NCBI GenBank assembly: GCA_009391535.1
Contig: VFHP01000013.1
Span: 16 to 64,015 of the forward strand
DNA from: SAR202 cluster bacterium
GTDB lineage: Bacteria > Chloroflexota > Dehalococcoidia > Lucifugimonadales > UBA2985
Reading direction: 5' to 3'
DNA length: 64,000 bases
Positions 29,364 through 63,967 of the stretch are shown here, in pieces. The position numbers and the translations under genes are program-made. Position 1 is the first letter of the stretch. Every line of letters begins with the position of its first letter. A model generated the notes under the pieces. That model made no database searches, was not told where the DNA came from, and saw nothing but the letters and a program-made list of their open reading frames with translations.

Positions 29364-29404
29364 ATTATACCTTGTTTATCGGCAATTGTCAACCCAATTA
29401 TTGA
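29364..29404 (-). promoter_or_regulatory. sigma70 promoter with nested sigma28-like element
   Basis: TTGACA-17-TATAAT with GCCGATAA in the spacer. Confidence 0.75.
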
Positions 29405-29413
29405 ATTAAAATT

Positions 29414-29455
29414 AAAAAAAGCCCAGTTCACTAATATAATTAGCAAGGCTGGGCT
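29414..29455 (-). terminator. intrinsic terminator after ssb
   Basis: AGCCCAG...CTGGGCT followed by T6. Confidence 0.7.
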
Positions 29456-29497
29456 AGACCTTATGAAAGTCGGGCAGAGATTTTCACCAACTTTCTA

Positions 29498-29863
29498 TTA
29501 GAAGGGTACTGATTCATCAGAAGATTCTGAACTCTTACTCTTTGATGCACCATCACCATTTTTAGGGCCTAGAGAAATATCGTCGGCCATCACGCAGACA
29601 GAGGTTCTCTTGACGCCTTCCTTGTCCTCGTAGTCGTCAATTTTGAGCTTACCTTGAACCCCTACTAAGAGTCCTTTGTTGAGGTGTGGCCCAAGCGCTT
29701 CAGCCATCTTTCCGAAGCAGAGGACGTTGAGAAAAAGAGTGTCGTCGTTACGTCTATCGTTTACCGCCAGACGAAACTTTGACATGGAAGTACCCTTTTG
29801 GGTTTGGCTATTTTCGGCGTCTTTGGTCAGACGACCTGCTACTACTAGTTGATTAATATTCAT
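29498..29863 (-). CDS. ssb: single-stranded DNA-binding protein
   Basis: GRLTKD, FRLAVN, KG..V.VQGKL, acidic C-terminus ending in PF. Confidence 0.9.
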   Translation of the reverse strand: MNINQLVVAGRLTKDAENSQTQKGTSMSKFRLAVNDRRNDDTLFLNVLCFGKMAEALGPHLNKGLLVGVQGKLKIDDYEDKEGVKRTSVCVMADDISLGPKNGDGASKSKSSESSDESVPF

Positions 29864-29868
29864 ACTAT

Positions 29869-30192
29869 TTAGATCTCCAATGCTGATCGAATTTTTCCAC
29901 GAACTACTTGACTGTGACCACGATTTGACTTGTTTGTCGTGGCTTCATAAAGATTTTCAGTAAACGTTTTAGTAAGACCGAGAGCCTTCCCTGCTTGCTG
30001 CGTTCCGCGCTTGTTTGAGGCGAACACACCTTTGCCTTGCTTATATGCAACTGCTGTCACAGGATTTAGTGACTCTCCTTTAACCTTCCCACGCTTACCT
30101 GTTGCAGTAATAGTTTTTTTATCACTGACCTGCCAGTTGTACGTGGCAGAGGTTTGGGAAAGCTTGTCGTAAAACTCGCTACTATTCATCAT
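29869..30192 (-). CDS. hypothetical basic protein
   Basis: AGGAG SD; ORF. Confidence 0.6.
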   Translation of the reverse strand: MMNSSEFYDKLSQTSATYNWQVSDKKTITATGKRGKVKGESLNPVTAVAYKQGKGVFASNKRGTQQAGKALGLTKTFTENLYEATTNKSNRGHSQVVRGKIRSALEI

Positions 30193-30210
30193 AAACTTCT
30201 CCTAAAATTA

Positions 30211-30468
30211 CTAACCTTGCTGAGGCAGTGTCAATGTCGGAATGCTAGGGGATACCTGTTTTCCGTCAATAAAATCTTGACCCTGTTGGTTCATTGCCTG
30301 TTCTGGGTTAGCGTCCTGATTACCAGCATTAAGCTCGGCAACGCCTTGTTGCAGATAGTCACTTAATGTCTGAATGTCCTGCTCGATACGAGCTTTGTTT
30401 TGCTGAAGCTCCTGAATCTGTTGTTCAACGTTTCTCAGGTGGGCTTCTGCCATTTCTCTAAGGTTCAT
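30211..30468 (-). CDS. coiled-coil hypothetical protein
   Basis: GAAAGG SD before ATG 30468; upstream promoter at 30509-30537. Confidence 0.6.
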   Translation of the reverse strand: MNLREMAEAHLRNVEQQIQELQQNKARIEQDIQTLSDYLQQGVAELNAGNQDANPEQAMNQQGQDFIDGKQVSPSIPTLTLPQQG

Positions 30469-30546
30469 TTTTATACCTTTCCAATAAAGACCGACTTTCT
30501 CATGCTTTATTATAGCATGTGGAGTACCGAAGTGCAACCGAAATCT

Positions 30547-31551
30547 CTAAAATAATCCTAAAGTTTTGTTTGTTAACTCAATGCTAGCTGATGAGCTGGT
30601 TCCCATGAGGCATCTTATAGCGTCAATGTTTTCTGGGACAACATCGCTTTCTTGGTGAACGGCTTGTATGTATAAAAGCTTATTCCCCCAAACTCCCATA
30701 GTTTCCTCCCAAACGCAAACCTCTGGCATGTCACCCCTACTGTTCCCTAAGTCTTTTGCGTATTCCATAATCTCAGCGGTAGATCGTATGCCGTCAGAGT
30801 TTTTGACTACCCTGACTCTAGTAGATGCATCAAAAAGTCCAACAACACCATCAACACTAGGCTTTTTATTAAGATCAACCGTTATGCTGTGGAGATGCAT
30901 CAGTGTGGTTGGTACAGATATTGAAGTTGTAAAAATTTCCATATCCTCAAGAACTGTTCTTACGTCTGGCCCGTGATGGGATGGTACGATTAAGTGCGGA
31001 ACAAGGGCGTTAACGGGGCCATGATATATATCCCAAGGGTCAGCAGCTCTTCGTATCATAGTCGCATGAACTTTATCTACCCCGTATTTCCAATGTAATG
31101 CGTCTAGAGTCCTACAAAGCCCTGTTGTGTTACAGCTTACAACACGAATAAACTCATGACCAACGCAATCTTCGTAATTGCATTGAGACACAAAGCTTTT
31201 CCCACATGAGCTTGGCTCTCCACCTTGGAATATAGCCTTGGTATTGTACTTCTTATATCTAGAGGTGTTTCTTTCTGCTGCACCTTTTGGTGTACAGTCA
31301 ACAACTACATCACTTTTGCTTATCAGGTCGTCTACGCTACCAGCTACTCGCAGCCCATGTTCTACATGTACAAATCCTTCAATATCAGAAAAGATTGGGA
31401 TGCCCTTTTCGTGAGCGGTCTTGATCTTAAAATTGTAGCTATTAGCAGTGACCCCTACTAGGTTCATATCTGGTTGCAATAGGACGGCATCGGCTACTCT
31501 TTTACCTATGGTGCCATACCCAAAAACACCGACATTTATATGGGGTTTCAT
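30547..31551 (-). CDS. gap: glyceraldehyde-3-phosphate dehydrogenase, type II (archaeal-type)
   Basis: GYGTIGKRVADAV..QPDM.LVGV, VVSCNTTGL, SHHGPDV, HQESDVVPENIDAIR. Confidence 0.88.
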   Translation of the reverse strand: MKPHINVGVFGYGTIGKRVADAVLLQPDMNLVGVTANSYNFKIKTAHEKGIPIFSDIEGFVHVEHGLRVAGSVDDLISKSDVVVDCTPKGAAERNTSRYKKYNTKAIFQGGEPSSCGKSFVSQCNYEDCVGHEFIRVVSCNTTGLCRTLDALHWKYGVDKVHATMIRRAADPWDIYHGPVNALVPHLIVPSHHGPDVRTVLEDMEIFTTSISVPTTLMHLHSITVDLNKKPSVDGVVGLFDASTRVRVVKNSDGIRSTAEIMEYAKDLGNSRGDMPEVCVWEETMGVWGNKLLYIQAVHQESDVVPENIDAIRCLMGTSSSASIELTNKTLGLF

Positions 31552-31781
31552 TAGAATTCGCCTTTTGTTAAAAAGTCCATGAGCTTAATGTGAGTCCACT
31601 GTACATCGTATTGATCATCAGTAGCTAGTCTGGCAAGCTCAATATAATCCAGTTGAAGTTTTGTTACGACTCTCGCAACAAATTCAGATTTTCCTGAGTT
31701 GACAAGATCTTCTAATATCGCAGCCAGTTTTATTATTGTTTGCTCAGGAGATTCTTGAGGGTCTGAATCTTCAGGAATCAT
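31551..31781 (-). CDS. hypothetical protein
   Basis: TAATG-coupled ORF. Confidence 0.55.
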   Translation of the reverse strand: MIPEDSDPQESPEQTIIKLAAILEDLVNSGKSEFVARVVTKLQLDYIELARLATDDQYDVQWTHIKLMDFLTKGEF

Positions 31782-32302
31782 TACATTTTTTCCATTACCG
31801 AAAGTGGAACTATGTAGTTTAGAGGCTTTCCAGCCCCGTACTTCTTCTTCTTCTTGTGTTTGTCGAAGCTTTCTCTAGTTATCGTTCCCAGAACGTCTAC
31901 TTCTTTTCTACCCCTATCGTACCTAACCAAGGCGTATGTTTTTGGCGGGGTTCTGGTCTCGTATTCGTTGACAGGAATTTTAAGCTCCGGTTCCCCTGCT
32001 CCCATATACGTTATGGTCTTCACTTCAACGCCATCAAAGTCTTCTCCAGAATCTCTTACGGAATATATCTCCTCGTCAACAGGCTCGCCTGTGGCTAGGG
32101 AATACCCAAGCTCCCCAATAACTCCTAGAAAGTGAGCCATATACTGGAAGTCAACCTTCATGTCTTCGGACAGTTTGGTTTTGCTTTCATTGATAAACTT
32201 CTTCGTGTCTTTGTTTCTGAAGGATATGTGTTTTGCGTCATGCCTCATGATGGCAAGTTCTAATGCGTACTTTAATTGTTTTTTACTAAGCTTAAATTTC
32301 AT
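31781..32302 (-). CDS. hypothetical protein, possible PD-(D/E)XK nuclease
   Basis: GE...D.G.D...EVK pattern. Confidence 0.5.
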   Translation of the reverse strand: MKFKLSKKQLKYALELAIMRHDAKHISFRNKDTKKFINESKTKLSEDMKVDFQYMAHFLGVIGELGYSLATGEPVDEEIYSVRDSGEDFDGVEVKTITYMGAGEPELKIPVNEYETRTPPKTYALVRYDRGRKEVDVLGTITRESFDKHKKKKKYGAGKPLNYIVPLSVMEKM

Positions 32303-32726
32303 ATTCCAACAGTTCTATGCCTGCCTCCTTAAACATGTTTCTCGATAGGGCGAATTCTTCGCTCCATCTCTCATTGTTACTTTTATAAGACACAACTCTG
32401 GTTATGCCTGTTTGTATTATCATACCCGCACATTTAGGACAGGGCATGAATGGGTATGTATATATTGTAGCACCCACGGGTGGTTCTGAGCAGAACAACA
32501 ATGCGTTGCACTCAGCGTGTACTATCATTTTATATTTGATTTCACGATTGTCAAGTCTTTTATCGTCAGAAAGTCCTAAAGGGAATCCGTTATATCCAAG
32601 AGAGAGCACTCTCCTGTCCTCATCCACTATTACCGCACCTACTTTCGTGGACGGGTCTTTAGACCAACTCGCTACCAGCTCAGCCATCTCTAAAAACCTG
32701 TTGTCCCACCCGCTATTGATCATCAT
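32292..32726 (-). CDS. dCMP deaminase
   Basis: SKDPSTKVGA, GYNG, HAE, PCPKC. Confidence 0.9.
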   Translation of the reverse strand: MMINSGWDNRFLEMAELVASWSKDPSTKVGAVIVDEDRRVLSLGYNGFPLGLSDDKRLDNREIKYKMIVHAECNALLFCSEPPVGATIYTYPFMPCPKCAGMIIQTGITRVVSYKSNNERWSEEFALSRNMFKEAGIELLEYEI

Positions 32727-40799: not shown

Positions 40800-40857
40800 A
40801 GTTTTTTCCTTAAAAGTAAAATCGTTTCACCGATAACCTATTATAGTGTAGATCTTG

Positions 40858-42972
40858 TTATTTGTCAACAGAATTTTGAATCAAATCAATATAATTGGCG
40901 AAATCTTGAGCCTGATCATCATCCAGCCCATACCATCCAATGTCAGAATGTGAGATCATAGGGTAGGACTCCAAGGCTTTGTCATACCTATCTGAGAAGC
41001 TGTTATTCTCCTCGTATTTAGGAACCTCGGTGGTCGCCCAGTGCTCCAGCTTAAACAGTTGTTCACAAGTGTATTCGTTCTCTGTGATGTCGGCACAGTG
41101 CTCTTTCCACTCAGCATGAATCTTCTTGAGATCATTATCAGTAGTGGTAAGTTCAACCGCTTTAGCAATCCGTTGACCTGATCGTTCCTTTGAGATTTCA
41201 GGTTTGTTACGGTGCTTGTTGAGTATTTCATAATTCTCTTCAATAAGCTCATTTATGTATCGCACAATTAGCTTGCTGCCGTTACGCCAACCGTCTCTTT
41301 CGCTAAGCTTCTTATTCTTAGCTACAGAAGGCTTGACCAAGAAGATCTTGTAGTCATTAATGCTATCGGCGTGCTGAGCAATTGTCCTAAGCTTACTTTG
41401 CAAAGCAGATATATGAATGGAGCGATAGTAGTCCTCAAATTTCAAGTACACTTCACCCCTAGACTCCTCAATATAATAGGCGTCTTCTTCTTTTACACTG
41501 ATCTTACACTCTACAAAATGACCTGCCTCATGGTCATAAACCTGACCCTGAACACTAGCTCCACCACCGCTGTAAGAATAGTTACGAACAGGTTTAGGTA
41601 GGGTAGACGTAAGGATGCAGTCTTCAACCTCAGCTCCACCAAGAAGCTCAAGAAAAGCGTTGGCGGCATTTGGATTATCCTCAAGGTCTCCAGCGTGGAA
41701 CATATAGCCAGAGAACTCTCTCTGCTCTTTAATATATTCCCTAATACGGCTGAGTCCACCTCTTGGGAGATCGTCAATAATGATTGTAGTATCGTGACGA
41801 AGGTTAATCTTGGTGGCGTGATCTGTCTCAATCTTTTGTCGCCACTGACTTTTGTAATAATGTTTTACGGAAATCAATTCACCAACTTCAATTTGTTCCA
41901 AACCGCTATCCCACAACGCCTCGCCGTTATATGAGATCGAGTTATCCAGAGAATCCATTACGGACTTCAGGGATTGACATTGATTACAAAGATTGAGGTA
42001 CTGACGACGAGCCTTGTACAAAGTAGGTTGTTGCTGAACCTGTCGTTCCATATCAACGGCAAGCTCAAGACTCATCTCCGTTATAATATTCTTAATAGCC
42101 TGTTTTGTCACCGCATTATATGACAGAGCTTCCCTACTAGGAGTGATATCAACATCACCAATGTCTACATATATACGGAGACCACGAGACCGATCAAGGA
42201 AATTGTACGCCTCGGAGTCTTCATCAGCAATTGGCCAGCTCCAGACATCATCAGCGTCGAGTGGGTAGGCAATCTGCCCCATGATCACAAAATTTCTACT
42301 TTCGCGCTTTACGAACTCGAAGTTAGAGCCGGAGAGAATTACTTCTTTGGTAGCCGTTGAGATCTCCTTGCCAATCATCTTGGGGGCGACATTAAAGAAG
42401 GCATATAGTTCAGAAGCCTCTCTCTCAAAATCGTAAATATCTTCCTCTTTTACCGGCATTGAAACTTTGAGACCGTCAGGCTCATCGGTTACGGTTTCAT
42501 CAAGGAGAGAAAAGACTGGCGAGCCATCTTCATTCATGAACGCTGAGTATACACGGGCAACCCCATTGAGATATGCTTCTACGGTGAACTGGTCGCAGTA
42601 TGCAAAAGGAGCTTTACTTCCCAGACCTAGGCAACCCACCGCATCATTACTATCATTGCGGGTGCTACGGAAGTATGTCGTGTAAAGAGACATGCACTCA
42701 GAGTGAGTCATGCTTGTGCCATAGTCCCTGACATAGAAAACAGGGTCGAGACGGGTAGGAAGATGCACGTCAAACGGACAATCAATCATACCTGCGTCTA
42801 CATGGGAGTCGTAAGCGTTTGTAGACAGCTCACGAATAACAGCTTTGACCTTGTTGGAGTAAAGGCCGTCAGAGAGAATGAAGAAAGCCTTAGCAGATGC
42901 TTCAATGCTAAAACTGGAATCTTCCAGAACGCCAGACTTTTCAATATTTTTTACTTGGGTGTGAAGTTTCAT
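40858..42972 (-). CDS. rIIA: RIIA-like protein (GHKL ATPase N-terminus)
   Basis: LYSNK..AVIRELSTNAYDSH, DYGT.M, G.LGLGSKAPF.Y, ITPSREALSY. Confidence 0.88.
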   Translation of the reverse strand: MKLHTQVKNIEKSGVLEDSSFSIEASAKAFFILSDGLYSNKVKAVIRELSTNAYDSHVDAGMIDCPFDVHLPTRLDPVFYVRDYGTSMTHSECMSLYTTYFRSTRNDSNDAVGCLGLGSKAPFAYCDQFTVEAYLNGVARVYSAFMNEDGSPVFSLLDETVTDEPDGLKVSMPVKEEDIYDFEREASELYAFFNVAPKMIGKEISTATKEVILSGSNFEFVKRESRNFVIMGQIAYPLDADDVWSWPIADEDSEAYNFLDRSRGLRIYVDIGDVDITPSREALSYNAVTKQAIKNIITEMSLELAVDMERQVQQQPTLYKARRQYLNLCNQCQSLKSVMDSLDNSISYNGEALWDSGLEQIEVGELISVKHYYKSQWRQKIETDHATKINLRHDTTIIIDDLPRGGLSRIREYIKEQREFSGYMFHAGDLEDNPNAANAFLELLGGAEVEDCILTSTLPKPVRNYSYSGGGASVQGQVYDHEAGHFVECKISVKEEDAYYIEESRGEVYLKFEDYYRSIHISALQSKLRTIAQHADSINDYKIFLVKPSVAKNKKLSERDGWRNGSKLIVRYINELIEENYEILNKHRNKPEISKERSGQRIAKAVELTTTDNDLKKIHAEWKEHCADITENEYTCEQLFKLEHWATTEVPKYEENNSFSDRYDKALESYPMISHSDIGWYGLDDDQAQDFANYIDLIQNSVDK

Positions 42973-43015: not shown

Positions 43016-43055
43016 ATTATACAGTACTTATCGGTTTTGTCAACCCCAAACTTTA
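43016..43055 (-). promoter_or_regulatory. nested sigma70/sigma28-like promoter for rIIA
   Basis: TAAAGTTTGGGG-TTGACA-AAACCGATAAGTACTG-TATAAT. Confidence 0.75.
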
Positions 43056-43603: not shown

Positions 43604-43956
43604 TTTTATCTACGGTAATCCACCCGCACCCTTCACACAGGCAGAAATACTTTTCATTGTTTCTAACGATCCCTGCAAAATCATTTTCCATCGCTTCCTC
43701 TTCGCTGCCTGAAAAAAGCTCCAAGCAACAGTCATAACAAAAGTTAGCCATTGGTCAGGCTCCATAGGTAAAATATATTCATGGCTTTATTGTACTATAT
43801 GTATCGTCAATGTCAAGAAGGTTCTTTAAGTTTTTTTGAGCAAAATCAAATAAAAACAAAGGGAGAACCACAAGTATAGATCCTTCAAAAGGCATTTGAA
43901 TGGTAAAAAGTATGGACATTAACGCAATGAACGGCTTGTCTGTAATTTTCACTAGG

Positions 43957-46577: not shown

Positions 46578-46867
46578 TACTTCCTTCTTGTGATATTAAA
46601 TTCAAGTGTTTCTGGGTAGTCCTCTTTAAGTTCCCAACTAGTGTTAAAGCTTTTCGCCTTATCGTCTAGTGAGAATATATACTCTGGGCTGTCCCATTCA
46701 TTCCAAATGTAAACTTTTTCTCTGTTTACCTCAACATCATCTATTGAGGTTTTAAGTGCTCTTGATATTGCCCTCACTAACGGACTTTTTGAGGGGTCTG
46801 ATTCTGCTCGTTTTGTATCGTGTTTTGTTACCTTAATGAGAATCTTGTCAGGCACTTGTTTCTCCAT
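46577..46867 (-). CDS. hypothetical protein
   Basis: ORF; promoter-like element at 46866-46893. Confidence 0.5.
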   Translation of the reverse strand: MEKQVPDKILIKVTKHDTKRAESDPSKSPLVRAISRALKTSIDDVEVNREKVYIWNEWDSPEYIFSLDDKAKSFNTSWELKEDYPETLEFNITRRK

Positions 46868-46919
46868 TATAGTATAAAAAACCTAGTTGTCAATAGAAGC
46901 CTGTGCGGGACTTGATAAA

Positions 46920-47378: not shown

Positions 47379-47450
47379 ATCTTTTCTCCTTGTTAAAGCA
47401 AGATTAAAGTGCTACCCTCTTAGGCGTAGCTGTTTGCCCGCACAGGCAAG

Positions 47451-47788
47451 TGGAGGCGGCGGGAATCGAACCCGCGTCCAGTATAATATCCACACTAGTA
47501 TCTACATTGTTAGTCTATTGTAGTCGCACAAAAGACAAAGCTATCAGGAATTACCTGAATCAGACAAATTATTGCCATCACCCTCCTTTACTTCAAGTGA
47601 GAAAACTCTATCCGATTATCGGAGTCAGCGTAATTGGGTAAGAAGGTTTACGCAACCCCCTGCCGCTAAGCGGCTAGTGCGAAATTCTTTTCGGCACTTA
47701 GAACTTTAATCGGTTTTTATACTGGCCTACCGATCAACCAGTCAATGCAACTAATACTTTTATTACCTGTCGATGCCTTTTCACCCCC
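47451..47788 (-). ncRNA. ssrA: tmRNA, tag peptide (A)AEKNFALAA*
   Basis: 5' GGGGGTG...TCGAC; 3' GGACGCGGGTTCGATTCCCGCCGCCTCCA with G3.U pair; tag ORF at 47666-47695. Confidence 0.93.
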
Positions 47789-48419: not shown

Positions 48420-48422
48420 AAG

Positions 48423-48496
48423 TAACCCTGACAGGATTTGAACCTGTAACCTACGGTTTAGAAGACCGTTGCTCTATCCGATTGAGCTACAGGGTC
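48423..48496 (-). tRNA. tRNA-Arg(UCU)
   Basis: Cloverleaf; anticodon arm ACGGT-CT TCT AA-ACCGT; GGTTCAAATCC; CCA not encoded. Confidence 0.92.
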
Positions 48497-48769: not shown

Positions 48770-49079
48770 TTTATTTCCTGCTTAAATTCCTGTGTTCATA
48801 CTCAGATGCAACTAAACAAATCATAGCACATTGCCACAGTAGCATGTAGTCTATGTCAAGATCGGTAAAAAACTTTAGTGCATGTGGAATAACTATAATA
48901 AATGTATACCAAATGTACTTTGAGAGTCTTTTGATCAAGTTACGTCTCCTATTATACCTTCTTTATCGTCAATGTCAACCAAAATCTTTAGGCAATTGTG
49001 GCAAATATTGTCTGAGATTCCCATCTCATAGAGATCCTCTACCGGAATTCTACAGAATGTTCCGCAGTGATCACAGGCT

Positions 49080-49487: not shown

Positions 49488-50464
49488 TATTTCTTGTCTA
49501 TTGTAACATCCTGTTTGCTTTTGTCAAGCTCTGGAAGAGTAGGAAATTTCTTTGAGTCGGCAGAAATTGACTTCTCGCCTTCTTTTCCTTCGTCCTTCTT
49601 TACTTCGCCTTCGATGGGAAGTTTTAGGATATCTTCTAAAGAGGGGACTTGTACGGTCTCGTCAACAGCCCATCCAATACCATTCTTGTTGGCGTATTCC
49701 CTGAGCCTTCTTACTGGTACCATTAGATTGAAAGTTTCACCAGCACCCCTTACGAGCATACCTACATATTCTCCCTTTTTATCCCCGGATCGCTCTGTGA
49801 GAAAAATTCCTCCTCCACTGGAACCGGGAAACGCTGTAACGGTTGTCTGGTCGAATACTACACCGTCTCCGCTACCAAGATTTAATACTCTACCGACTTG
49901 AGATACAATCCCTCTTGTCATAGAGTTACTTCCCACCTGTCCTAGTAGTGAGCCTACATGGTATAGTTCCGTTCCGATGGCAACTGGATTCCCTTCGCCT
50001 TTATAAAAACTAATTCCTGCGTCTGTGAAGTTGACCTTTCTGATCATCAATAGTGCTAAGTCTTCTCCCTCTTCGGAATCTGAATATTTCAGAACCTTAG
50101 CGTCCATCTTAACTTCACCCACACGTCTACCGTTTTCTACAAGCTCCTGTACAATTTGGGCGTCTTTGAACTCTACGCTTGTTTTGACCTTACCATCATA
50201 AACAGTATTCCTGACCGTTCTAAGGTTGTCGATGACATGAGCAGCAGTCCAGACAAAATTTATTTTAGCGGTCTTGTTTGGTGCAATCTGAACTTCTCTT
50301 GTAATGATAGTTCCAGAACCCTCGCCTGAACCAGATTTTACAGTAACAGATACTTGCTGGAACTTGTCATATAAACTATCTGGGTCTTGAGCCTGACCAG
50401 AAACGTTGGGCGTAAAGGTTACTGCTAGTAGTAGTGCCACCACTAATTTGTTAAACATCTTCAT
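49487..50464 (-). CDS. secreted trypsin-like serine protease
   Basis: Signal peptide; TAAHV, DLALL, PGSSGGG. Confidence 0.85.
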   Translation of the reverse strand: MKMFNKLVVALLLAVTFTPNVSGQAQDPDSLYDKFQQVSVTVKSGSGEGSGTIITREVQIAPNKTAKINFVWTAAHVIDNLRTVRNTVYDGKVKTSVEFKDAQIVQELVENGRRVGEVKMDAKVLKYSDSEEGEDLALLMIRKVNFTDAGISFYKGEGNPVAIGTELYHVGSLLGQVGSNSMTRGIVSQVGRVLNLGSGDGVVFDQTTVTAFPGSSGGGIFLTERSGDKKGEYVGMLVRGAGETFNLMVPVRRLREYANKNGIGWAVDETVQVPSLEDILKLPIEGEVKKDEGKEGEKSISADSKKFPTLPELDKSKQDVTIDKK

Positions 50465-53573: not shown

Positions 53574-53821
53574 AATTCTCTCCTTTTTTAGCTGGCTATA
53601 CTATAAACGCTTTCATCCAATTGGGTTTGGTGCGACAGCCACGCTATATGATACAATCTGTATCGGTATTTGTCAACTAGATTCTTTAGAAAAAATGGTT
53701 TTTCTCGCTGGCTATAACTATTTGGGCGGATCTGAAATGATTAGCAGAGACACTCGGTGGAATATATGGTTAGCCGTGTATAATATACTACCACCCTCTA
53801 GTCGTTAGCGAGGTAATAACT

Positions 53822-54410: not shown

Positions 54411-54517
54411 CTGGGCTACATACAGTGGTCAGACTATACCATTATACCATATATCGACACAATGTCCATAAGTCTTGAGTCTATAAGTAGTTAAGTAAAA
54501 TATATGACAGGGCGGTT

Positions 54518-56079: not shown

Positions 56080-56144
56080 TTCAAAACCTTTCATTGAAAA
56101 AACTTGTGCTTATGCCATACATTATAGCATATAAAATCTAAATG

Positions 56145-56360
56145 TCAATCATCCATCGGCGGAAAAAGTTCTTGCCAGCATGAATCGCAGGTTGCCGACA
56201 TCAGCAACTCACGATGACCTTTTGGCAGGTACGGCAGTGCATCCTGAATCAGCGTGCCGGTTCCCCACTTGCGTATGTCATCTGGATCAGCCTTGACAAC
56301 GGTGGTTTCCCTGCACAGGCGGCAGACAAGCTGGTACTCTTGCATCTCTTTCATGGTCAA
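56145..56360 (-). CDS. small Zn-finger protein
   Basis: CRLC...IQDALPYL..G.RELLMS..CDSCW. Confidence 0.6.
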   Translation of the reverse strand: MTMKEMQEYQLVCRLCRETTVVKADPDDIRKWGTGTLIQDALPYLPKGHRELLMSATCDSCWQELFPPMDD

Positions 56361-56463
56361 TCTCCTTTGTTGTTACACTACCATTCTATCATATATATCG
56401 GCAAAGTCAAGCTCTAACCTTGAGATAATTACCAGAAAAACCAGAGTTTTGCGAAAAACTTTT

Positions 56464-56518: not shown

Positions 56519-56716
56519 TCACACCCTCTTCTCATTCAACCACGGAAACGCATCTTCTAATTCCTGTGCGCTATCTCTCCCAGCCTCCGCCAAACTTCCT
56601 AAGTCTACGTCTGACTCACCTATGTGAGCTACAGCCATACAGTCCAGCCATGCGTGTGTAATAGCGTCAACTTGTTCATTTGTTAAATTATCCGGCATGT
56701 CGTACCAATCTCCCAC
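56519..56716 (-). CDS. small acidic protein
   Basis: ORF in the early cluster. Confidence 0.5.
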   Translation of the reverse strand: MGDWYDMPDNLTNEQVDAITHAWLDCMAVAHIGESDVDLGSLAEAGRDSAQELEDAFPWLNEKRV

Positions 56717-56820
56717 TCCAAATCATTGTTATCCATTAGCTCGTTTAGATATTCATATACATCTATGTCATCAATATCGTCACGTTCAAAGTCTAAATAT
56801 ATTACTACTGTACTACTCAT
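56683..56820 (-). CDS. small acidic protein (45 aa)
   Basis: Manual translation MSSTVVIYLDFERDDIDD...; starts inside the TTGAAGATGAGT junction. Confidence 0.5.
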   Translation of the reverse strand: MSSTVVIYLDFERDDIDDIDVYEYLNELMDNNDLEWEIGTTCRII

Positions 56821-56896
56821 CTTCAATTTCCACTTTATTTTCTTCAAGCCAATCTAACCAAACCTGCCTCATAATATCCCATCCATCACTACTCAT
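56813..56896 (-). CDS. 27-aa microprotein
   Basis: MSSDGWDIMRQVWLDWLEENKVEIEDE*; starts and ends in junction repeats. Confidence 0.45.
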   Translation of the reverse strand: MSSDGWDIMRQVWLDWLEENKVEIEDE

Positions 56897-57077
56897 CTTC
56901 AACCCCTTTTACCTCAATACCAAGTTCATTATAAGAATAATTAGTAGCTGCTATGCAGGCATCTAAGCTCCAAGCCTCGGCAACAATACCCTCATCACCT
57001 AATTGAATCTCAACAGTAGCACCAGACTCAGGGCTTATCATATGTGGCTCTAAATGTAGGTATATAGTTCTACTCAT
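56889..57077 (-). CDS. small hypothetical protein
   Basis: MSRTIY...GVEDE*. Confidence 0.55.
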   Translation of the reverse strand: MSRTIYLHLEPHMISPESGATVEIQLGDEGIVAEAWSLDACIAATNYSYNELGIEVKGVEDE

Positions 57078-57231
57078 CTTCAATCTCCGGTGGACAATCT
57101 CTATCATCAATGTAATACTGCCAGTCAGCAGGTAGTCCATTAACTTCGACTACCATGCCACCCTCTACAACAATGCTTACTAGCTTATCGCTATCAGCAA
57201 TTTCTCCGGTCTTATAATTAAGATCACTCAT
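57070..57231 (-). CDS. small hypothetical protein
   Basis: MSDLNY...EIEDE*; GAGGAG SD. Confidence 0.55.
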   Translation of the reverse strand: MSDLNYKTGEIADSDKLVSIVVEGGMVVEVNGLPADWQYYIDDRDCPPEIEDE

Positions 57232-57257
57232 CTTCAACTCCTCTATATAGTCTACCA

Positions 57258-57605
57258 TTATACTGGCTTAAACATCAGTGCAGGTCTGTCCATAGGAACC
57301 CGCCGACTTCCCTCTCCCCAAGATATTGTAATCTCACAACGTAAGTGGGTTGCGGATTCAACTACCTTGACCACAAAGCCATGTTTCTCAAATTCGTCAG
57401 CAATCGCATCTCTATGATAGTAGCAATCACTGACAGTAAGACTCGTATAACCCTCTCGTGCTGCTTTCTTTAACCTTCTTCTAACACTTGTAATTCTATT
57501 GCTAAGAGTATGTGAGGAATTGCTCTTACGTTTAGCCTTAGCCGCAAGTTCCCTACAATCCTCTAACAATTTAGAAGGCAAATAATTTTCATACTTCTCA
57601 CTCAT
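57258..57605 (-). CDS. hypothetical protein
   Basis: MSEKYE...ITISW. Confidence 0.55.
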   Translation of the reverse strand: MSEKYENYLPSKLLEDCRELAAKAKRKSNSSHTLSNRITSVRRRLKKAAREGYTSLTVSDCYYHRDAIADEFEKHGFVVKVVESATHLRCEITISWGEGSRRVPMDRPALMFKPV

Positions 57606-57913: not shown

Positions 57914-58091
57914 TCTTTTCTCTCCTTGTGGTTAGAATTACTCCCAACCATCAGCTAACACAAACATTAAAACTAAAAGCAAAATCGCTCCCATAGGCAG
58001 CACTCCTCAAAAGGTTACATCGTACACTCCTTCATTATACCATACATCGTCATTTTGTCAACCAAACTTTAGCTTATCCTGATATATATAG

Positions 58092-58164
58092 TAGGGCTGG
58101 TGAGAATCGAACTCACGACACCCGCCTTATAAGGACGGCGCTCTTACCACTGAGCTACAGCCCC
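58092..58164 (-). tRNA. tRNA-Ile(UAU)
   Basis: Cloverleaf; CCGTC-CT TAT AA-GGCGG; discriminator A; no CCA. Confidence 0.88.
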
Positions 58165-58888: not shown

Positions 58889-58895
58889 GGTTATA

Positions 58896-59135
58896 TTATA
58901 CCACATCTCCAACAGATTTCAAGTAGATTTTGCACAAAGTTTTAAATCTTTTGTGCGTACTTCCATCTTGAGGGTGAGCCGCAACGATTACGCCGCTATC
59001 CTCAATCTTGACGAAACGTGAAGGCTTCTCTTGCCCGCACTTAACCCACTGACCGGCCTGCAACTTCAACTGACCAGTACGAACCATATGTGCCGTGTTG
59101 CCGTCCCAAAGGTCAACCGTCTTCGTGTAACGCAT
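58896..59135 (-). CDS. hypothetical protein
   Basis: AAGGAG SD. Confidence 0.6.
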   Translation of the reverse strand: MRYTKTVDLWDGNTAHMVRTGQLKLQAGQWVKCGQEKPSRFVKIEDSGVIVAAHPQDGSTHKRFKTLCKIYLKSVGDVV

Positions 59136-59345
59136 CTCGTCTCTCCTTGTGCTTACCTGTGAAATAGAAATCGTTTCTTATGTCTCTATTATACTATATC
59201 GTCATTATATGTCAATAGTCTTTAGCCTTTTCCTCAGAATTTTCCAATCTTTTCGCTGGCTATCTTATGGTGTCTTAGATCCGGGAAGATTGGCTAAGAC
59301 CTGGGGTGGCCGGGATGTAACCCCTTGGCCGGGAAGGGTTTGCGT

Positions 59346-59374: not shown

Positions 59375-59377
59375 AAG

Positions 59378-59451
<74 letters not shown>

Positions 59452-59774: not shown

Positions 59775-59775
59775 A

Positions 59776-59931
59776 TTATTTGTCTCCTTTGAAAGACAGT
59801 TCAACTTGTGCGAAGTCCAACGTAGACTTCTTACCATTCTTTTCAACCGTGACACTATCATGATTGATGGATACAACAGTACCCTGCGGCAACTCAGTGC
59901 CAACACTAACAAGTGGCTTCTGATTACTCAT
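59776..59931 (-). CDS. small hypothetical protein
   Basis: MSNQKP...; GAGGAG SD, overlaps the upstream stop. Confidence 0.5.
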   Translation of the reverse strand: MSNQKPLVSVGTELPQGTVVSINHDSVTVEKNGKKSTLDFAQVELSFKGDK

Positions 59932-60181
59932 CAGCAATCTCCTCTGAAAATGCTTCTTCTTTCGCTTTGGCTTCAGCGATCTCTTTAGCCAACTCCTCAG
60001 CTCTCTCGCTGTCATACTGAGCAATTCGCTCATTCAGACGTTTGGTCAAGCTCCGTAGCTGCTGCTCGTCGTAGCTGAACTCCACCTTGTCATCACCAAA
60101 GTATAGTTCAATCTTCTCAGACCAACTGGAAACGTATGAAGCGGTCAGGTTGCCAGCTTCGATTTGTTGAGAAACTTTCAT
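59924..60181 (-). CDS. hypothetical protein
   Basis: GGGAG SD, downstream of promoter 60227-60266. Confidence 0.6.
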   Translation of the reverse strand: MKVSQQIEAGNLTASYVSSWSEKIELYFGDDKVEFSYDEQQLRSLTKRLNERIAQYDSERAEELAKEIAEAKAKEEAFSEEIADE

Positions 60182-60226: not shown

Positions 60227-60266
60227 ATTATACAATAATTATCGGCATTGTCAACCGGTTTCTTTA
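60227..60266 (-). promoter_or_regulatory. nested sigma70/sigma28-like promoter
   Basis: TAAAGAAACCGG-TTGACA-ATGCCGATAATTATTG-TATAAT. Confidence 0.8.
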
Positions 60267-60272
60267 ACTTTT

Positions 60273-60680: not shown

Positions 60681-60835
60681 TTCTTTTCTCCTTACGTTGT
60701 CCTTTGTTACTCTTCTATTATAACATATATCGGCTGTTTGTCAAGTCATTCTTTAATCTTTTTTTTGCTTTTTTTCGCTGGCGGTGAGTTTTCGCTGACT
60801 TCCACATCGCCGCTTGACTCTTTTAGTTTAGGGAA

Positions 60836-60929: not shown

Positions 60930-60995
60930 ACTACTCCATTATAGTATATATCGGCTATATGTCAAGTAGACTTGAGACAATTCCAGAATTTTCTT

Positions 60996-61022: not shown

Positions 61023-61035
61023 GAAATTTAAAGAA

Positions 61036-61165
61036 ACCGGCGACCCTCATGTTGGCGATGAGAGATCTATTTGAGTCCTGTTATCCCGCCGCCCTCTTCT
61101 CATCTTACAGTTACCGTTGTTAGCGTAAGACGACAGGCAGGCAACCAACACAAAGGTCAACCGGC
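61036..61165 (-). ncRNA. putative 3'-UTR structured RNA / long terminator
   Basis: GCCGGT-GACCTT-TGTTGG pairs with CCAACA-AGGGTC-GCCGGT then U-tract; inner GTCTTAC/GTAAGAT. Confidence 0.5.
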
Positions 61166-61184
61166 ATTCTCTCGAAAGGAATTC

Positions 61185-61490: not shown

Positions 61491-61540
61491 AATTCTTTCC
61501 TTTCGTAATATTGTTTAGTACAACTTTATTATATCATACT

Positions 61541-62323
61541 TTATACAGTTGTCAACTTTTTTCTACTGTAAGATCCGACGCCTTTCAGGGCTTTCAGTGC
61601 CGTCGCTGCATCGGTTCCCTTTGGTTGCGTTCCGTGTAGCAGTAGGGCAAAACTCTGATTCTTTAATGATGGACGTGCCGCATGGCTGTCATCGTGGTCA
61701 ATTTCTAATCCGAGTTTATTCGCTTCCGCTTCACTGAACACAACCTGTGCGAATCGTAGATTCTGGGATTCGATTAATTCGTCATTTCTTCCGCCATAGC
61801 TAGCAGTAAGAACAAAATTATCAATGCTACAATAGTAATCCTCCAACTCAAGCCAATACTTCAGTGACTTAGTGTAAGCATAGAATAACGTGTTGGGATT
61901 GAGTTCCGCCAACGTCATCCATGCTAACATATAATCACGACTAAAGAAATCGCCTGCAACGTGGATTCTCACGATACCCGCATCCGATGGAAGTGCATCA
62001 TATAACATACGATTCATTTCCAACTGTGACGATCCACGCAACATATCAAAATTGTGTTTGCGTGAATTGTATACGTTGGTATACTGCACTTCTTGGCTAG
62101 CAGAGAAACAACGGAATTCTGTTTTCTTTCCGTCTTTGATTTTCCGCTTGCCGGTTGCCTTGTCAACTGTTGCCTTAGAAAGACACTTCTCAGCAAACGG
62201 ACAACTATAACCGCTCAGCAGGTCAAGAGAATAGATTTTCCGCTTGTCTGCAAGATACGGCTTCAGCTCCTCGACTTGCTTCAGGGCTTCAGTTTTGGCA
62301 TTGGCTTTTGAGAACTTCAACAT
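61541..62323 (-). CDS. GP88-like phage protein
   Basis: SCPFA..C, RC, RIHVAGDF, YAYTKS. Confidence 0.75.
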   Translation of the reverse strand: MLKFSKANAKTEALKQVEELKPYLADKRKIYSLDLLSGYSCPFAEKCLSKATVDKATGKRKIKDGKKTEFRCFSASQEVQYTNVYNSRKHNFDMLRGSSQLEMNRMLYDALPSDAGIVRIHVAGDFFSRDYMLAWMTLAELNPNTLFYAYTKSLKYWLELEDYYCSIDNFVLTASYGGRNDELIESQNLRFAQVVFSEAEANKLGLEIDHDDSHAARPSLKNQSFALLLHGTQPKGTDAATALKALKGVGSYSRKKLTTV

Positions 62324-62516
62324 TGTGCTTTCCTTTCGCGTGATTGTTTCCTCTATTATAATATATTATCGGCATATGTCAAGGGGCAACTTAAACTTTT
62401 TTTCGCATTTTTACTGACTTTCCGCTGGCTATACATTGGAGCATTTAACCCGATAGGATTGAGGGGGACAGATCATTATAGCACATATCCCCGCCGATGT
62501 CAAGGGCAAAAAAATA

Positions 62517-62543
62517 AAAAAACGCCCCGCGATTTTTGTGCCA
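62517..62543 (-). promoter_or_regulatory. sigma54-type box (copy 5)
   Basis: TGGCACAAAAATCGCGGGGCGTTTTTT. Confidence 0.55.
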
Positions 62544-62550
62544 AAAATAT

Positions 62551-63031
62551 AGCAGCCTCAAACCGGCACGAAAGGAAACCGGCGAGGCTGCTGGTGAACC
62601 GCGCATCAAGCGCGGGATAATTGTGTGGCGACTTGCAGGGGATTTGCACCCCTACCGATTGCACTGAACTGGAGGGACTAAGCTGTCCCATCGTATCCAC
62701 CGATTTGGTTAACCGCCCCTCGGGGCATCCTCGGTTTCGTGTCCTATCTATCAGTTCAGTGGCTTATCAACCGGCGCACTACGCCAAGCCATTGTATTGT
62801 GCCGCGTTTATACCCCAGTAGCAGACGTTAGGCTTTCACTTTACTAAAGGGGAGCGGCGTTGTATTGCACTGGTGAGTGTGGCGATCAACCACGCTCTCA
62901 TTCACTGCGACCCGATGCCTCGGACAGTGAAGCCCACGCCAGTGTCGTGAGCAGGTTGTGATGCCGGAAAAGCGAATTAACTTGCGGACTGACATGTCCA
63001 AGCCGCAGAGGTTTCCTTATCTGGCTATCAC
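62551..63031 (-). ncRNA. array of structured RNA modules incl. a tRNA-like RNA ending in CCA (62626-62790)
   Basis: ORF-free, GC-rich, six self-closing modules separated by CAATACAA-type linkers. Confidence 0.65.
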
Positions 63032-63040
63032 GCACTTGTA

Positions 63041-63253
63041 TCAAAATTCGTTATATAGGTCACAATCCCACTCGTATTCAGCGTGATCGTATTGGCCGTG
63101 ATCCCAATCATCACCGCCGTAAAAATCCTGCCACTCATCATACTCAGACGGTTGGCCGTCGTCTTCCATGATGTCGTCCACCGTAGGCTCATCCACCTCT
63201 GGAAGGTAGTCGTCCATAAACGGCTTGCTGCGTTGGATGTTGTCGTTGCTCAT
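63041..63253 (-). CDS. highly acidic small protein (possible DNA mimic)
   Basis: Very D/E-rich 70 aa; ACGAAAGG SD. Confidence 0.6.
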   Translation of the reverse strand: MSNDNIQRSKPFMDDYLPEVDEPTVDDIMEDDGQPSEYDEWQDFYGGDDWDHGQYDHAEYEWDCDLYNEF

Positions 63254-63278
63254 AGTAAAACCTTTCGTAGAGTAAAAA

Positions 63279-63363
63279 AGTGGGATGCAGTGGCTCTTAA
63301 CCCTAGCCGGTTGGCTCCAGTTCCCGTTTTGAGTCGTCCCCAGTGGTCGGGGTGCCTGTCACT
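63279..63363 (-). ncRNA. putative structured leader RNA
   Basis: Begins just after promoter 63375-63402; several hairpins, ends in U6. Confidence 0.4.
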
Positions 63364-63374
63364 CGTATGTCTTT

Positions 63375-63414
63375 ATTATACTATAATTATCGGCGTTGTC
63401 AAGTGGTTTCTTTA
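63375..63414 (-). promoter_or_regulatory. nested sigma70/sigma28-like promoter
   Basis: TAAAGAAACCAC-TTGACA-ACGCCGATAATTATAG-TATAAT. Confidence 0.8.
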
Positions 63415-63654
63415 GTTTTTTTTGAAGTTTTTCAAATCTTCGTACCGAAGAGGCCCAGCACCAATACGGCTAGGGTAGCCAGCGTCAATCCAGTGGTTGA
63501 CTGTACCCTTCGTGGTGTCGTAGGGTGAGATGTCAGCAAACACGGTTTCGCCGTTTGGCTTTGTAACCGTATGCCAAGCCTTACACACGTCAGGCTCAAC
63601 GTGGAATTCAATCCTACAATCGTGATTCTTATAAGTCCAAGTTTTGTCTTTCAT
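63412..63654 (-). CDS. hypothetical protein
   Basis: ACGAAAGGG SD; promoter at 63678-63706. Confidence 0.6.
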   Translation of the reverse strand: MKDKTWTYKNHDCRIEFHVEPDVCKAWHTVTKPNGETVFADISPYDTTKGTVNHWIDAGYPSRIGAGPLRYEDLKNFKKN

Positions 63655-63927
63655 AATTTCCCTTTCGTTATGTATATATTATACCATAAATTGCGCCGGT
63701 TGTCAAGAGCAAACTTCAGTTTTTTTTGCTTCTTTGTCTATGACAATCATGGCGTCAATAATGGCATACTTCACAGCCTTTGATGCACCTAGTGCTTGAG
63801 CCTTGAAGATAACTTCCCATAGCTCTCGCTTAATCTCTTTTATGTCTTTTATGTCTTTCACTTTATTACCTTTCGTGTTAGGGTGCTGTCGGTTACCCCA
63901 GTTGAATGTTGCCCTTGTTATGTCTTA

Positions 63928-63967
63928 AGTATACTATAATTATCGGCAATGTCAAGAGTAAACTTGA
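63928..63967 (-). promoter_or_regulatory. nested sigma70/sigma28-like promoter
   Basis: TCAAGTTTACTC-TTGACA-TTGCCGATAATTATAG-TATACT. Confidence 0.75.

Follow-up and report, generated by a model that had tools for sequence, protein, structure and literature searches.

Roughly 60% of the strong sigma-70-type early promoters of an uncultured marine phage appear to hold a further promoter, complete in itself and of the sigma-28 (FliA/WhiG) type. The window, that is, the whole stretch of 64,000 nucleotides analyzed, is one whole phage contig and probably represents the early and middle half of the phage. At all 15 loci listed in an initial annotation of this DNA, the element T(A/C)AAG ... (G)NCGATA is interwoven with the sigma-70 boxes, a nested arrangement which is real and far above chance. 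Its anatomy, rigid spacing, direction, conservation across phages, and likeness to the flagellin promoters of Planctomycetota are matters of observation, while the explanation that we favor, in which the nested elements are host sigma-28-type promoters interdigitated with sigma-70 promoters, is given about an even chance of being correct. The interpretation of the initial annotation, according to which early genes fire from either the housekeeping or the flagellar sigma factor, is on the present sequence evidence partly supported.

With no more than one mismatch permitted, a scan of the whole window for TTGACA-N15-19-TATAAT gave 27 minus-strand and 3 plus-strand sites. The region from 29364 to 63967 holds 23 of the 27 minus-strand sites, with a 16-nt spacer in 18 of the 23, in agreement with the approximately 22 near-consensus promoters, mostly with this spacer, described initially. 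Perfect TTGACA-N16/17-TATAAT sites number 17, with no plus-strand case among them; 100 shuffles gave an expectation of 0.03. Among the minus-strand sites recovered by the box scan, sigma-70-type promoters without the nested element are located at 63678..63706 (with CCGGCG and no CGAT in the spacer and CTGAAG upstream), 62475..62503, 61528..61555, 56121..56148, 46866..46893, and 40840..40868, all of which entered the perfect-site count, and at 58895..58922 (TTGAAA). The sigma-70-type sites at 49500..49527 (TACAAT), which falls within an ORF, and at 32527..32554 (TAAAAT) also lack the element. The motif of the late phage genes is another one, tgtgTATAAT, consisting of a -10 box only.

All 15 of the -10 positions listed initially exist, and 14 were recovered in the scan at one mismatch or fewer; the promoter at 56383..56423 (TCAAG, gap 17, CCGATA), being TTGACT-N16-TAGAAT with two mismatches to the sigma-70 consensus, was checked separately. 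The reported pairing of a spacer CGAT with an upstream T(A/C)AAG was found at 15 of 15 loci, with the 5-mer variants TTAAG at 62355 and TCAAT at 29364. Gap here denotes the number of bases that separate T(A/C)AAG, which ends in G, from the hexamer NCGATA; the TAAAG-to-CGAT figure of the initial annotation is this gap plus 1. On the minus strand, composites with gap 16 comprise TCAAG with CCGATA at 63928..63967 (in TTGACA-N16-TATACT) and at 60938..60975 (the pair lying 2 nt further downstream than in the commonest register); TCAAG with TCGATA at 54441..54478 (in TGGACA-N16-TATAAT); TAAAG with CCGATA at 63375..63414 (in TTGACA-N16-TATAAT), 60227..60266, and 43016..43055, the last upstream of an rIIA-like gene (40858-42972); TAAAG with ACGATA at 48951..48990, preceding a small ORF, tRNA-Arg, and a tmRNA gene, and at 43789..43828 (in TTGACA-N16-TACAAT); and TAAAG with ACGATG at 58034..58071. 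Those with gap 17, likewise on the minus strand, comprise TTAAG with CCGATA at 62355..62394 (in TTGACA-N16-TATAAT), upstream of a GP88-family gene (61541-62323); TAAAG with CCGATA at 60717..60755 and 53648..53688 (the latter in TTGACA-N17-TATCAT); TAAAG with ACGATA at 59188..59224, the most shifted register, with the 5-mer 4 nt before the -35 box and CGAT 8 nt after it; and, with a weak upstream half, TCAAT with CCGATA at 29364..29404 (in TTGACA-N17-TATAAT), the final composite ahead of the middle region. The composite promoters also share an A/T-rich tract upstream and CATAAC at the start region.

The window holds 9 copies of TAAAG-N17/18-CGATA, against 0.31 expected; all are on the minus strand, and 8 lie inside a sigma-70 promoter (composites at 63375, 60717, 60227, 59188, 53648, 48951, 43789, and 43016 entered the chance counts). 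The reported TAAAG-to-CGAT figures were reproduced, nine loci having 17 and the other six 18, as was the sliding of CGAT between 4 and 8 nt past TTGACA across the 15 loci. The coupling of these distances was assessed in a pool of 32 composites, 13 from this contig and 19 from C7, a related phage contig of the same bin which shares the element; sites 29364 (TCAAT) and 56383 (two mismatches) were left out. Across this pool, the distance from the 5-mer to the -35 box (4 to 9 nt) and that from the -35 box to CGAT (3 to 8 nt) are anticorrelated (r = -0.90) and always sum to 11 or 12, a variance as low as that observed being reached in 0 of 100,000 permutations. The gap is 16 or 17 in 32 of 32 promoters, while the register relative to the -35 and -10 boxes moves by up to 5 nt.

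Among 59 sigma-70 sites of contigs C7, C13, and C9, the element runs in the direction of the sigma-70 promoter in 28 cases and is reversed in 1, and the logo of these sites reads cTAAAGat ... GCCGATAa. The 28 own sites carry TAAAG (17) or TCAAG (11), with hexamers including CCGATA (17) and ACGATA (9); a G directly precedes the hexamer in 23 of them and in 133 of 149 IMG/VR sites, and gap 17 is found in 16 of 28 and 93 of 149, respectively. Rigid internal spacing, logo, and co-direction with the sigma-70 promoter bear out the earlier proposal that the element is independent, bipartite, and of sigma-28 type.

It could be argued that the element is functionless, representing baggage of one promoter cassette copied many times, as the composites have the upstream A/T-rich tract and CATAAC in common and one register dominates, the 5-mer lying 7 nt before the -35 box in 14 of the 28 own sites. 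This explanation is disfavored and is considered very improbable, because the sequence between the blocks varies freely while the blocks themselves are retained, and because shifts of register are always compensated on both sides. Orthologous promoters likewise retain the element despite changes of register, 5-mer variant, and gap class; at the GP88 gene of the two phages, the distance between 5-mer and -35 box grows from 7 to 9 nt and that between -35 box and hexamer shrinks from 4 to 2 nt, the gap remaining 17. The element is, moreover, present on more than 100 IMG/VR contigs, and 66 of 119 element-bearing viral contigs have no detectable protein in common with the phage within the stretch examined, which also argues against mere inheritance.

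The closest known counterpart is the class 3 flagellar promoter read by sigma-28 (FliA/SigD/WhiG), whose consensus, TAAAGTTT-N11-GCCGATAA as printed in the available portion of PMC2859248, is the one quoted in the initial annotation and corresponds in E. coli to a gap of 15; the excerpted text of PMC12784957 gives the -35 sequence of Pseudomonas aeruginosa as TCTAAAG. Compared with that printed consensus, both blocks match the phage octamers cTAAAG and GCCGATAa, down to the C preceding TAAAG and the G preceding CCGATA, and both elements are two-block, asymmetric, fixed in spacing, and aimed at the gene. In contrast to class 3 sites, which serve flagellar genes, the phage sites precede early phage genes and always lie inside a near-consensus sigma-70 promoter, never alone.

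The pattern T[AC]AAG-N(g)-NCGA[TA]A, with g from 8 to 25, was sought upstream of flagellin genes in Planctomycetota (106 regions, 51.7 kb), which returned 1, 10, 12, and 1 motifs at gaps of 14, 15, 16, and 17, respectively, compared with 4 at all other gaps together and 6 in all on the reverse strand. The alternation of TAAAG (13) and TCAAG (11) and the hexamers CCGATA (13), TCGATA (5), and ACGATA (4) are common to flagellin and phage sets, CCGAAA (2) being the remaining flagellin variant, although the flagellin promoters have no interwoven TTGACA/TATAAT. Whereas the phage uses gaps of 16 and 17, the flagellin promoters use mainly 15 and 16, gap 16 (12 of 24 motifs) being common to both and gap 17 accounting for 1 of 24. 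The claim that the phage gap is 1 to 2 nt longer than that of sigma-28 promoters therefore holds against the printed consensus but not against planctomycete flagellin promoters, the use of gaps 15 and 16 by the latter reducing the objection to about 1 nt; given the many gap-17 sites of the phage, its spacing nevertheless lies about 1 nt above any host set examined.

The phage host is probably a planctomycete, as suggested by a single gene family, DUF1501, compared across three phyla, and the initial guess of such a host thereby gains support. Two phage DUF1501 genes occupy 249..2760 on the minus strand (249-1505 and 1507-2760), the first reaching 70% identity with genes of Planctomycetota. Of 101 Planctomycetota genomes searched, 53 contained a match, whereas none was obtained in 100 other genomes of the phylum to which the bin belongs or in 101 from the phylum of G003; the bin was accordingly rejected as the host. 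FliA/WhiG scores above the curated cutoff in 100 of 121 Planctomycetota genomes, and flagellin is present in 66 of 121. In G078, G044, and G024 (59 to 62% DUF1501 identity, flagellin motif present), 5 of 5 sites have gap 16, while no motif stood out clearly in front of the flagellin genes of G099, G074, G001, and G047, the closest flagellin-bearing genomes by DUF1501. The bin assembly (89.6% complete) lacks FliA, FlhA, and flagellin, which would weigh against a dual-sigma reading were the bin the host after all.

Likeness to sigma-28 promoters also bears on the notion that the element is an operator for a DNA-binding protein, of phage or host origin, whose two reading heads differ and which, by occupying T(A/C)AAG and CGATA, would cover the -35 box and spacer and shut off or modulate the sigma-70 early promoters. 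Confinement to sigma-70 promoters, a sliding register that stays within the polymerase footprint and so suits occlusion, and a preferred 11-nt offset equal to one helical turn are all compatible with such a protein. We nonetheless regard it as quite unlikely: the halves are neither direct nor inverted repeats, they match the sigma-28 octamers including flanking bases as well as flagellin promoters of the likely host phylum, and the orientation fixed to transcription (28 to 1) is unneeded for simple occlusion. A candidate repressor is also lacking, no DNA-binding Pfam family having been detected among the early ORFs scanned.

The phage encodes a sigma factor of its own, sigma-A (19017..19472, minus strand; 151 amino acids), with weak profile matches to regions 2 and 4, and this protein, whose target is unassigned, counts against the host sigma-28 reading. 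Were sigma-A the reader, host sigma-70 would start the early genes and sigma-A would then sustain a subset of them from a start about 11 nt upstream, supporting early and middle expression, perhaps while host sigma-70 is being disabled. Because regions 2 and 4 are present, recognition of a two-block promoter is to be expected, and the gene lies just downstream of the promoter-rich region and is conserved in C7 (36245-36685, 41% identity) and in 113 metagenomic clusters. The -10-only motif of the late genes differs from the nested element, which leaves the latter as a candidate target of sigma-A. A gap of 16 to 17, about 1 nt above the host-type promoters examined, would suit a different protein geometry; of 27 family members, 22 show partial matches to FliA/WhiG, and among PDB chains WhiG alone aligns along a single long stretch, albeit weakly (E value, 0.018). 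Sigma-A is, however, a generic sigma factor of ECF size, the sigma70-ECF model matching 27 of 27 members and none reaching the FliA/WhiG curated cutoff; hhalign against planctomycete FliA returned a probability of only 25%, and the recognition helix reads RETIRRK in sigma-A versus SESRVSQ in FliA. An unrelated sigma factor would, furthermore, need to copy both sigma-28 octamers together with the host-like variants (TCAAG; A/T/CCGATA). In the available accounts, known phage sigma factors use stand-alone promoters before middle or late genes, whereas no stand-alone copies above background were found in C7, C13, and C9, and a sigma-A promoter is judged unlikely overall. This lack also counts against the host sigma-28 reading, as an independent promoter class might be expected to stand by itself in some cases.

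Precedents exist for parts of this arrangement. The T4 early and middle promoters, which employ MotA/AsiA (PMC2988021), and the sigma cascades of SPO1 and phiEco32/7-11 (PMC13401047, PMC8948821) resemble the present phage in their strong sigma-70 early promoters, phage-encoded sigma-like factors, and two promoter classes for many genes. T4 middle promoters retain the sigma-70 -10 box and have a MotA box, fixed in position, instead of the -35 box, whereas here an entire second -35/-10 pair slides inside the first. The E. coli sigma network, in the part of PMC3923258 available, similarly has promoter regions shared by several sigma factors, so that more than one serves a regulatory region; there, however, the overlap is a statistical one of binding regions in a cellular genome, as opposed to the base-by-base interdigitation of the phage, which looks designed, recurs at dozens of viral loci, and is retained across a viral lineage.

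Under the favored sigma-28 reading, the -35 half, cT(A/C)AAG, would sit 4 to 9 nt upstream of TTGACA and the -10 half, G(C/A/T)CGATA, within the sigma-70 spacer, placing the predicted sigma-28-type start 7 to 12 nt, mostly 11 nt, upstream of the sigma-70 start. At an 11-nt offset, this predicted start coincides with an A of TATAAT, and given the two favored offsets, 11 and 9 nt, it falls on such an A in 25 of the 28 own sites. Because the promoters overlap, each locus would accommodate one RNA polymerase holoenzyme at a time, and an early gene could thus be started by either the housekeeping holoenzyme or that of a host FliA/WhiG-family sigma factor. We infer that host FliA is the reader and that both starts are in use. 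Early phage genes may, therefore, be switchable by two different host sigma factors, and, if so, the phage could launch in cells with differing sigma pools, such as flagellated swarmer as opposed to sessile cells.

Nearly all genes of the window lie on the minus strand, and the encoded products include an rIIA-like protein, a DnaB helicase, a class II ribonucleotide reductase, a GP88-family protein, a mycobacteriophage-L5-gp82-like protein, three tRNAs and one tmRNA; the window is phage DNA. The contig to which it belongs (C13; 64,029 bp, of which the window covers all but 29 bases) is one of 26 in the assembly. A second contig, C7 (152,655 bp), represents a related phage, the 1- to 58-kb region of which is syntenic with reversed C13 at 48 to 83% protein identity, and because a third, C9 (93.7 kb), matches the late half of C7, C13 and C9 most likely form a single phage genome of approximately 158 kb. 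The viral share of the assembly is thus 3 of the 26 contigs, or about 310 kb of 1.36 Mb. An 8-kb part of the window had no match in the phage collection searched by blastn, while the rIIA-like and DnaB proteins share no more than 37% identity with those of cultured phages (tblastn), none of which is close; of 10 large late proteins compared with PHROGs, just 2 received a name. One late ORF of C7 (positions 101194 to 114429) specifies 4,412 aa. DNA of the window was found in marine metagenomes of at least eight coded studies.

Phage early promoters are textbook cases of simple, strong sigma-70 sites, and the window harbors 27 minus-strand sites that depart from TTGACA-N15-19-TATAAT by no more than one base, versus 3 on the plus strand. 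Perfect copies of TTGACA-N16/17-TATAAT number 17, all in the coding orientation, where 0.03 would be expected. In sigma-70 promoters, which depend on the primary sigma and start transcription about 7 nt past the -10 box, the -35 and -10 boxes stand 17 +/- 1 nt apart in front of genes of equal orientation, and this arrangement of the boxes is seen here. Twenty-three of the 27 are located within the stretch to which the initial annotation had assigned dual promoters, 18 of these 23 with a 16-nt spacer. The coding strand of C7 carries 30 such sites, almost all of which fall inside the first 33 kb of the contig; the majority have an insert of the kind described below. The remaining 23 contigs of the assembly display background levels only. 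A start-region motif, (g)aCATAAC(a), is situated 5 to 8 nt past many TATAAT boxes (for example, at 63362 to 63369); it is conserved not only in the window but also in C7 and among IMG/VR relatives, which suggests a shared 5' leader.

The initial annotation had described, at 15 loci, a CGAT within the spacer and T(A/C)AAG, or a variant thereof, upstream of the -35 box. All 15 loci are present, with sigma-70 boxes containing at most one mismatch in 14 and two in the remaining one (56383); CGAT occurs in each, mostly as GCCGATA or GACGATA, and the upstream 5-mer is likewise found at each, being TTAAG once and TCAAT once. When the gap is taken as the number of bases between the closing G of the 5-mer and the start of the NCGATA hexamer, its value is 16 in nine loci and 17 in six, corresponding to the distances of 17 and 18 nt previously reported under a count that is one base longer. 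TAAAG-N17/18-CGATA is present in 9 copies in the window versus 0.31 expected.

Across 32 pooled composite promoters, that is, sigma-70 promoters with both blocks, the 5-mer lies 4 to 9 nt before the -35 box and CGAT 3 to 8 nt after it, and yet these two distances total 11 or 12 in all 32 (r = -0.90), a variance as small as which was obtained in 0 of 100,000 permutations. Such compensated distances bear out the earlier claim of an independent bipartite element: T(A/C)AAG and NCGATA are one element and not two. In the GP88 promoter, a shift of the pair by 2 nt against the sigma-70 boxes separates C13 from C7 with the gap of 17 retained, and other orthologous promoter pairs exhibit an exchange among TAAAG, TCAAG and TTAAG or a change between gaps 16 and 17; in three orthologous pairs the element is missing on one side. 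That the element is inert is considered very improbable.

The element logo reads AAT..cTAAAGat, followed by a smear of the sliding TTGACA and by atGCCGATAa. Of the 28 element copies in the phage contigs, 17 have TAAAG and 11 have TCAAG as the 5-mer, and in 27 the base before it is C or T; as the hexamer, 17 have CCGATA and 9 have ACGATA, and 22 continue with A or T. A G stands directly ahead of the hexamer in 23 of the 28 and in 133 of 149 IMG/VR sites. The element is co-directional with the sigma-70 promoter at 28 of 59 sites in C7, C13 and C9 and opposite at 1 of the 59, and outside sigma-70 promoters it is no denser in these three contigs than in the non-phage contigs. That the element represents an operator, as opposed to a promoter, is regarded as a slim possibility.

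The composite arrangement extends well beyond the two phages. Screening of IMG/VR with TTGACA-N2-7-CCGATA-N3-9-TATAAT returned at least 119 stretches with at least 160 matches; T[ACT]AAG is located at gap 16 or 17 from CCGATA in 72 of the 160 matches listed, and at the other gaps from 12 to 21 in only 1 of those 160. Only 53 of the 119 stretches listed have a detectable protein in common with C7 or C13. A strict 23-base pattern, for which well under one match was expected across 185,579 species genomes, was recovered from 22 stretches, most of these being short phage-like contigs in bins labeled as many differing phyla. The anatomy is a solid observation, and in this widespread lineage of marine phages some 60% of early promoters contain the element.

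FliA-dependent promoters serve flagellar, chemotaxis or developmental genes, whereas the phage element precedes early phage genes, namely small early ORFs, the GP88-family gene, the rIIA-like gene, tRNAs and the tmRNA. The tmRNA (47448 to 47788, minus strand; tag AEKNFALAA) is positioned downstream of the composite promoter at 48951, as is tRNA-Arg(tct) (48422 to 48496), while tRNA-Ile(tat) (58091 to 58164) and tRNA-Asp(gtc) (59377 to 59451) are encoded elsewhere on the same strand. Metatranscriptome contigs from a phage-containing sample stack at 56534 to 57334 with a summed word depth of up to approximately 1,200; small ORFs underlie this pile-up, no Rfam family was detected there, and, as the RNA contigs are 90 to 99% alike, they derive in part from relatives. 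Three metatranscriptome runs from phage-containing samples consist of assembled contigs, in which no transcription starts are visible, and no RNA data set was listed as containing the DNA of the window.

The sigma-28 consensus is given as TAAAGTTT-N11-GCCGATAA (PMC2859248, PMC7286023), and for Pseudomonas aeruginosa the sigma-28 -35 element is reported as TCTAAAG, with the flipped base at -11 being the A of CGA (PMC12784957). The phage element matches both the -35 block, TAAAG(TTT), and the -10 block, GCCGATAA, and, since the two blocks and their flanking bases agree with the consensus, the blocks are those of sigma-28. The N11 spacer corresponds to a gap of 15, in contrast to 16 or 17 at all phage sites, so that the 1- to 2-nt excess over the consensus noted by the initial annotation stands. 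Because PMC12784957 describes the length of sigma-28 spacers as not conserved, the phage gap is viewed as a deviation rather than an exclusion. When the A of CGA is taken as -11, a sigma-28-type start would be placed 7 to 12 nt upstream of the sigma-70 start; of the 28 sites, 17 have a predicted offset of 11 nt and 8 have one of 9 nt, either of which would put the start at an A within the TATAAT box. The limited collection of literature searched yielded no description of sigma-28 elements nested in phage promoters, and relative to it this interdigitated sigma-28-type and sigma-70 promoter anatomy is new.

A near-identical TAAAGTTT-N12-GCCGATAA overlapping TTGACA-N15-TATAAT was also observed in eight MAGs labeled Desulfobacterales or Desulfobacteraceae (contigs L125, L127, L128, L130, L136, L140, L142 and L144). 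This site was dismissed as a clue to the phage, being located before an operon for an RND efflux fusion protein and pump (L125) and not before flagellar genes.

Flagellin promoters of Planctomycetota, with which a comparison had been advised, were assessed in 106 upstream regions (51.7 kb) using T[AC]AAG-N(g)-NCGA[TA]A at each g from 8 to 25. The motif occurred once at g = 14, 10 times at 15, 12 times at 16 and once at 17, with 4 matches at all other gaps together, compared with 6 matches overall on the reverse strand. The 24 motifs at gaps 14 to 17 contain TAAAG (13) or TCAAG (11), and CCGATA (13), TCGATA (5), ACGATA (4) or CCGAAA (2). The gap differs among lineages, being 16 twice each in the Planctomycetota genomes G078, G044 and G114 and 15 twice in G073; it is 16 in 5 of 5 flagellin motifs of the three motif-yielding genomes with 59 to 62% DUF1501 identity. 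The comparison thus held for the sequence variants, the set of which is the same as in the phage element, and for spacing at gap 16, but not at the phage's 17, which the flagellin promoters leave almost unused. Judged by its sequence, the phage element is a flagellin-type promoter of Planctomycetota. At the genome-wide scale, TAAAG-N12-20-GCCGATA in five planctomycete genomes did not exceed the level of a reversed-pattern control, and none of its conserved matches in these genomes preceded flagellar genes. Of the 121 Planctomycetota genomes sampled, 100 have a FliA/WhiG match that exceeds the curated cut-off and 66 have flagellin, and the FliA/WhiG family may have a role beyond flagella in this phylum. 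Some of these genomes contain up to five FliA/WhiG-family matches at E <= 1e-40.

No such sigma factor was recovered from the bin in which the phages were found: apart from its viral contigs, the assembly amounts to a small genome, probably of a Dehalococcoidia-like Chloroflexota, with one primary sigma and an RpoD resembling Chloroflexota proteins, and searches of this 89.6% complete assembly recovered no FliA, FlhA or flagellin. An indication of the host is provided by the DUF1501 genes, of which C13 contains two complete tandem copies (249 to 1505 and 1507 to 2760) and one cut by the contig end (2 to 235), and C7 contains three (55.8 to 60.3 kb), with none on the non-phage contigs of the assembly. 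Relatives of the first DUF1501 gene, reaching 70% identity across its whole length, were identified in 53 of 101 Planctomycetota genomes; none turned up among 100 further genomes from the phylum of the bin or among 101 from that of a Gammaproteobacteria-labeled MAG. The bin was, therefore, rejected as host, relatives having been found neither on its non-phage contigs nor in those 100 genomes of its phylum. This distribution suggests that the gene was acquired from a planctomycete, which the phage probably also infects, in a comparison that covered three phyla; binning would then be accidental. Together with DUF1501, the occurrence of phage-like contigs with the same promoters in bins of many phyla is why binning was treated as uninformative. 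The best-matching Planctomycetota genomes sampled have a G+C content of 44 to 48% versus 42% for the phage; among those closest by DUF1501, G074 and G099 come nearest to it in G+C. The tmRNA was discarded as a host marker, since it is equally similar (57 to 59% identity) to four planctomycete tmRNAs and to that of the bin and is thus uninformative. The three tandem DUF1501 genes per phage have the appearance of an expanded auxiliary family.

A phage sigma regulon of the SPO1 gp28 or phiEco32 gp36 type would call for a phage sigma gene, and one is present: sigma-A (19017 to 19472; 151 aa), with weak matches to sigma regions 2 and 4, an ortholog on C7 and a family that spans at least 113 metagenomic clusters. 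Profile searches assign it to the general sigma-70/ECF superfamily only. The partial FliA/WhiG matches obtained for 22 of 27 family members all stayed well short of the cut-off. For sigma-A itself, the best PDB matches are SigA (E = 0.003) and WhiG (E = 0.018), hhalign gave 25% probability against planctomycete FliA, and its ESM Atlas look-alikes are viral sigma-like clusters. By PDB profile search, NCBIfam and hhalign, sigma-A could not be placed in any specific sigma group. That sigma-A reads the element is deemed a minor possibility, against which stand the lack of stand-alone sites, with no stand-alone element above background before middle or late genes of C7, C13 and C9, and the use by late genes of a different signal. 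Late-gene upstream regions (C7 88 to 152 kb, minus strand) contain a tttttgtgTATAATa-like or tgtgTATAAT extended -10 without a -35, and no shared middle-gene motif was found in the intergenic regions of C7 34 to 88 kb.

A 194-aa PAS-domain protein (17534 to 18118, minus strand; C7 homolog 50% identical) is encoded two genes downstream of sigma-A and may be a sensor linked to it. Between sigma-A and the last composite promoter, a minus-strand block (20280 to 27970) comprises glycosyltransferase-like, UDP-glucose-dehydrogenase-like, radical-SAM-like and sulfotransferase-like genes; it seemingly has no counterpart there on C7, as the C7 sigma gene is only about 3 kb from the last composite promoter. 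A second small sigma-like gene (C9 1823 to 2317, plus strand; 164 aa, region 2 only) adjoins an HTH protein gene at the junction of the late and early regions and has no counterpart on the C7 contig. A FlgM-like match in an early ORF (59924 to 60181; E = 0.15 and 0.05), considered as an anti-sigma-28, was discounted as noise among coiled-coil matches.

The reading to which we give the most weight, at roughly even chances, is that a FliA/WhiG-family sigma of the host reads the element, so that early genes would start from either holoenzyme; a small remainder is reserved for something outside the readings considered. More tentatively, we propose that a widespread lineage of marine Planctomycetota phages carries interlocked early promoters read by both the housekeeping and the host FliA/WhiG sigma, whereby the phage would sense the developmental state of the cell and its launch would be secured or tuned. 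The states sensed through the host sigma would be those of the motile swarmer and the sessile reproductive cell.

To our knowledge, viral use of a host cell-type sigma is undescribed, and we know of almost no cultured phages of Planctomycetota. Within a lineage represented by more than 100 viral contigs with composite promoters, each genome has dozens of loci at which a second, complete promoter of flagellar-sigma type is woven base by base into the first, with its own spacing under selection. If host FliA reads the element, the launch of a virus would be coupled to a host developmental sigma, which would offer a first way into the transcription signals of Planctomycetota and into their phage-host biology; if the phage sigma does so, a new way of setting middle promoters within early ones would be represented. 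Under either reader, these promoters constitute a compact natural two-sigma design and a sequence signature by which this phage group may be found.
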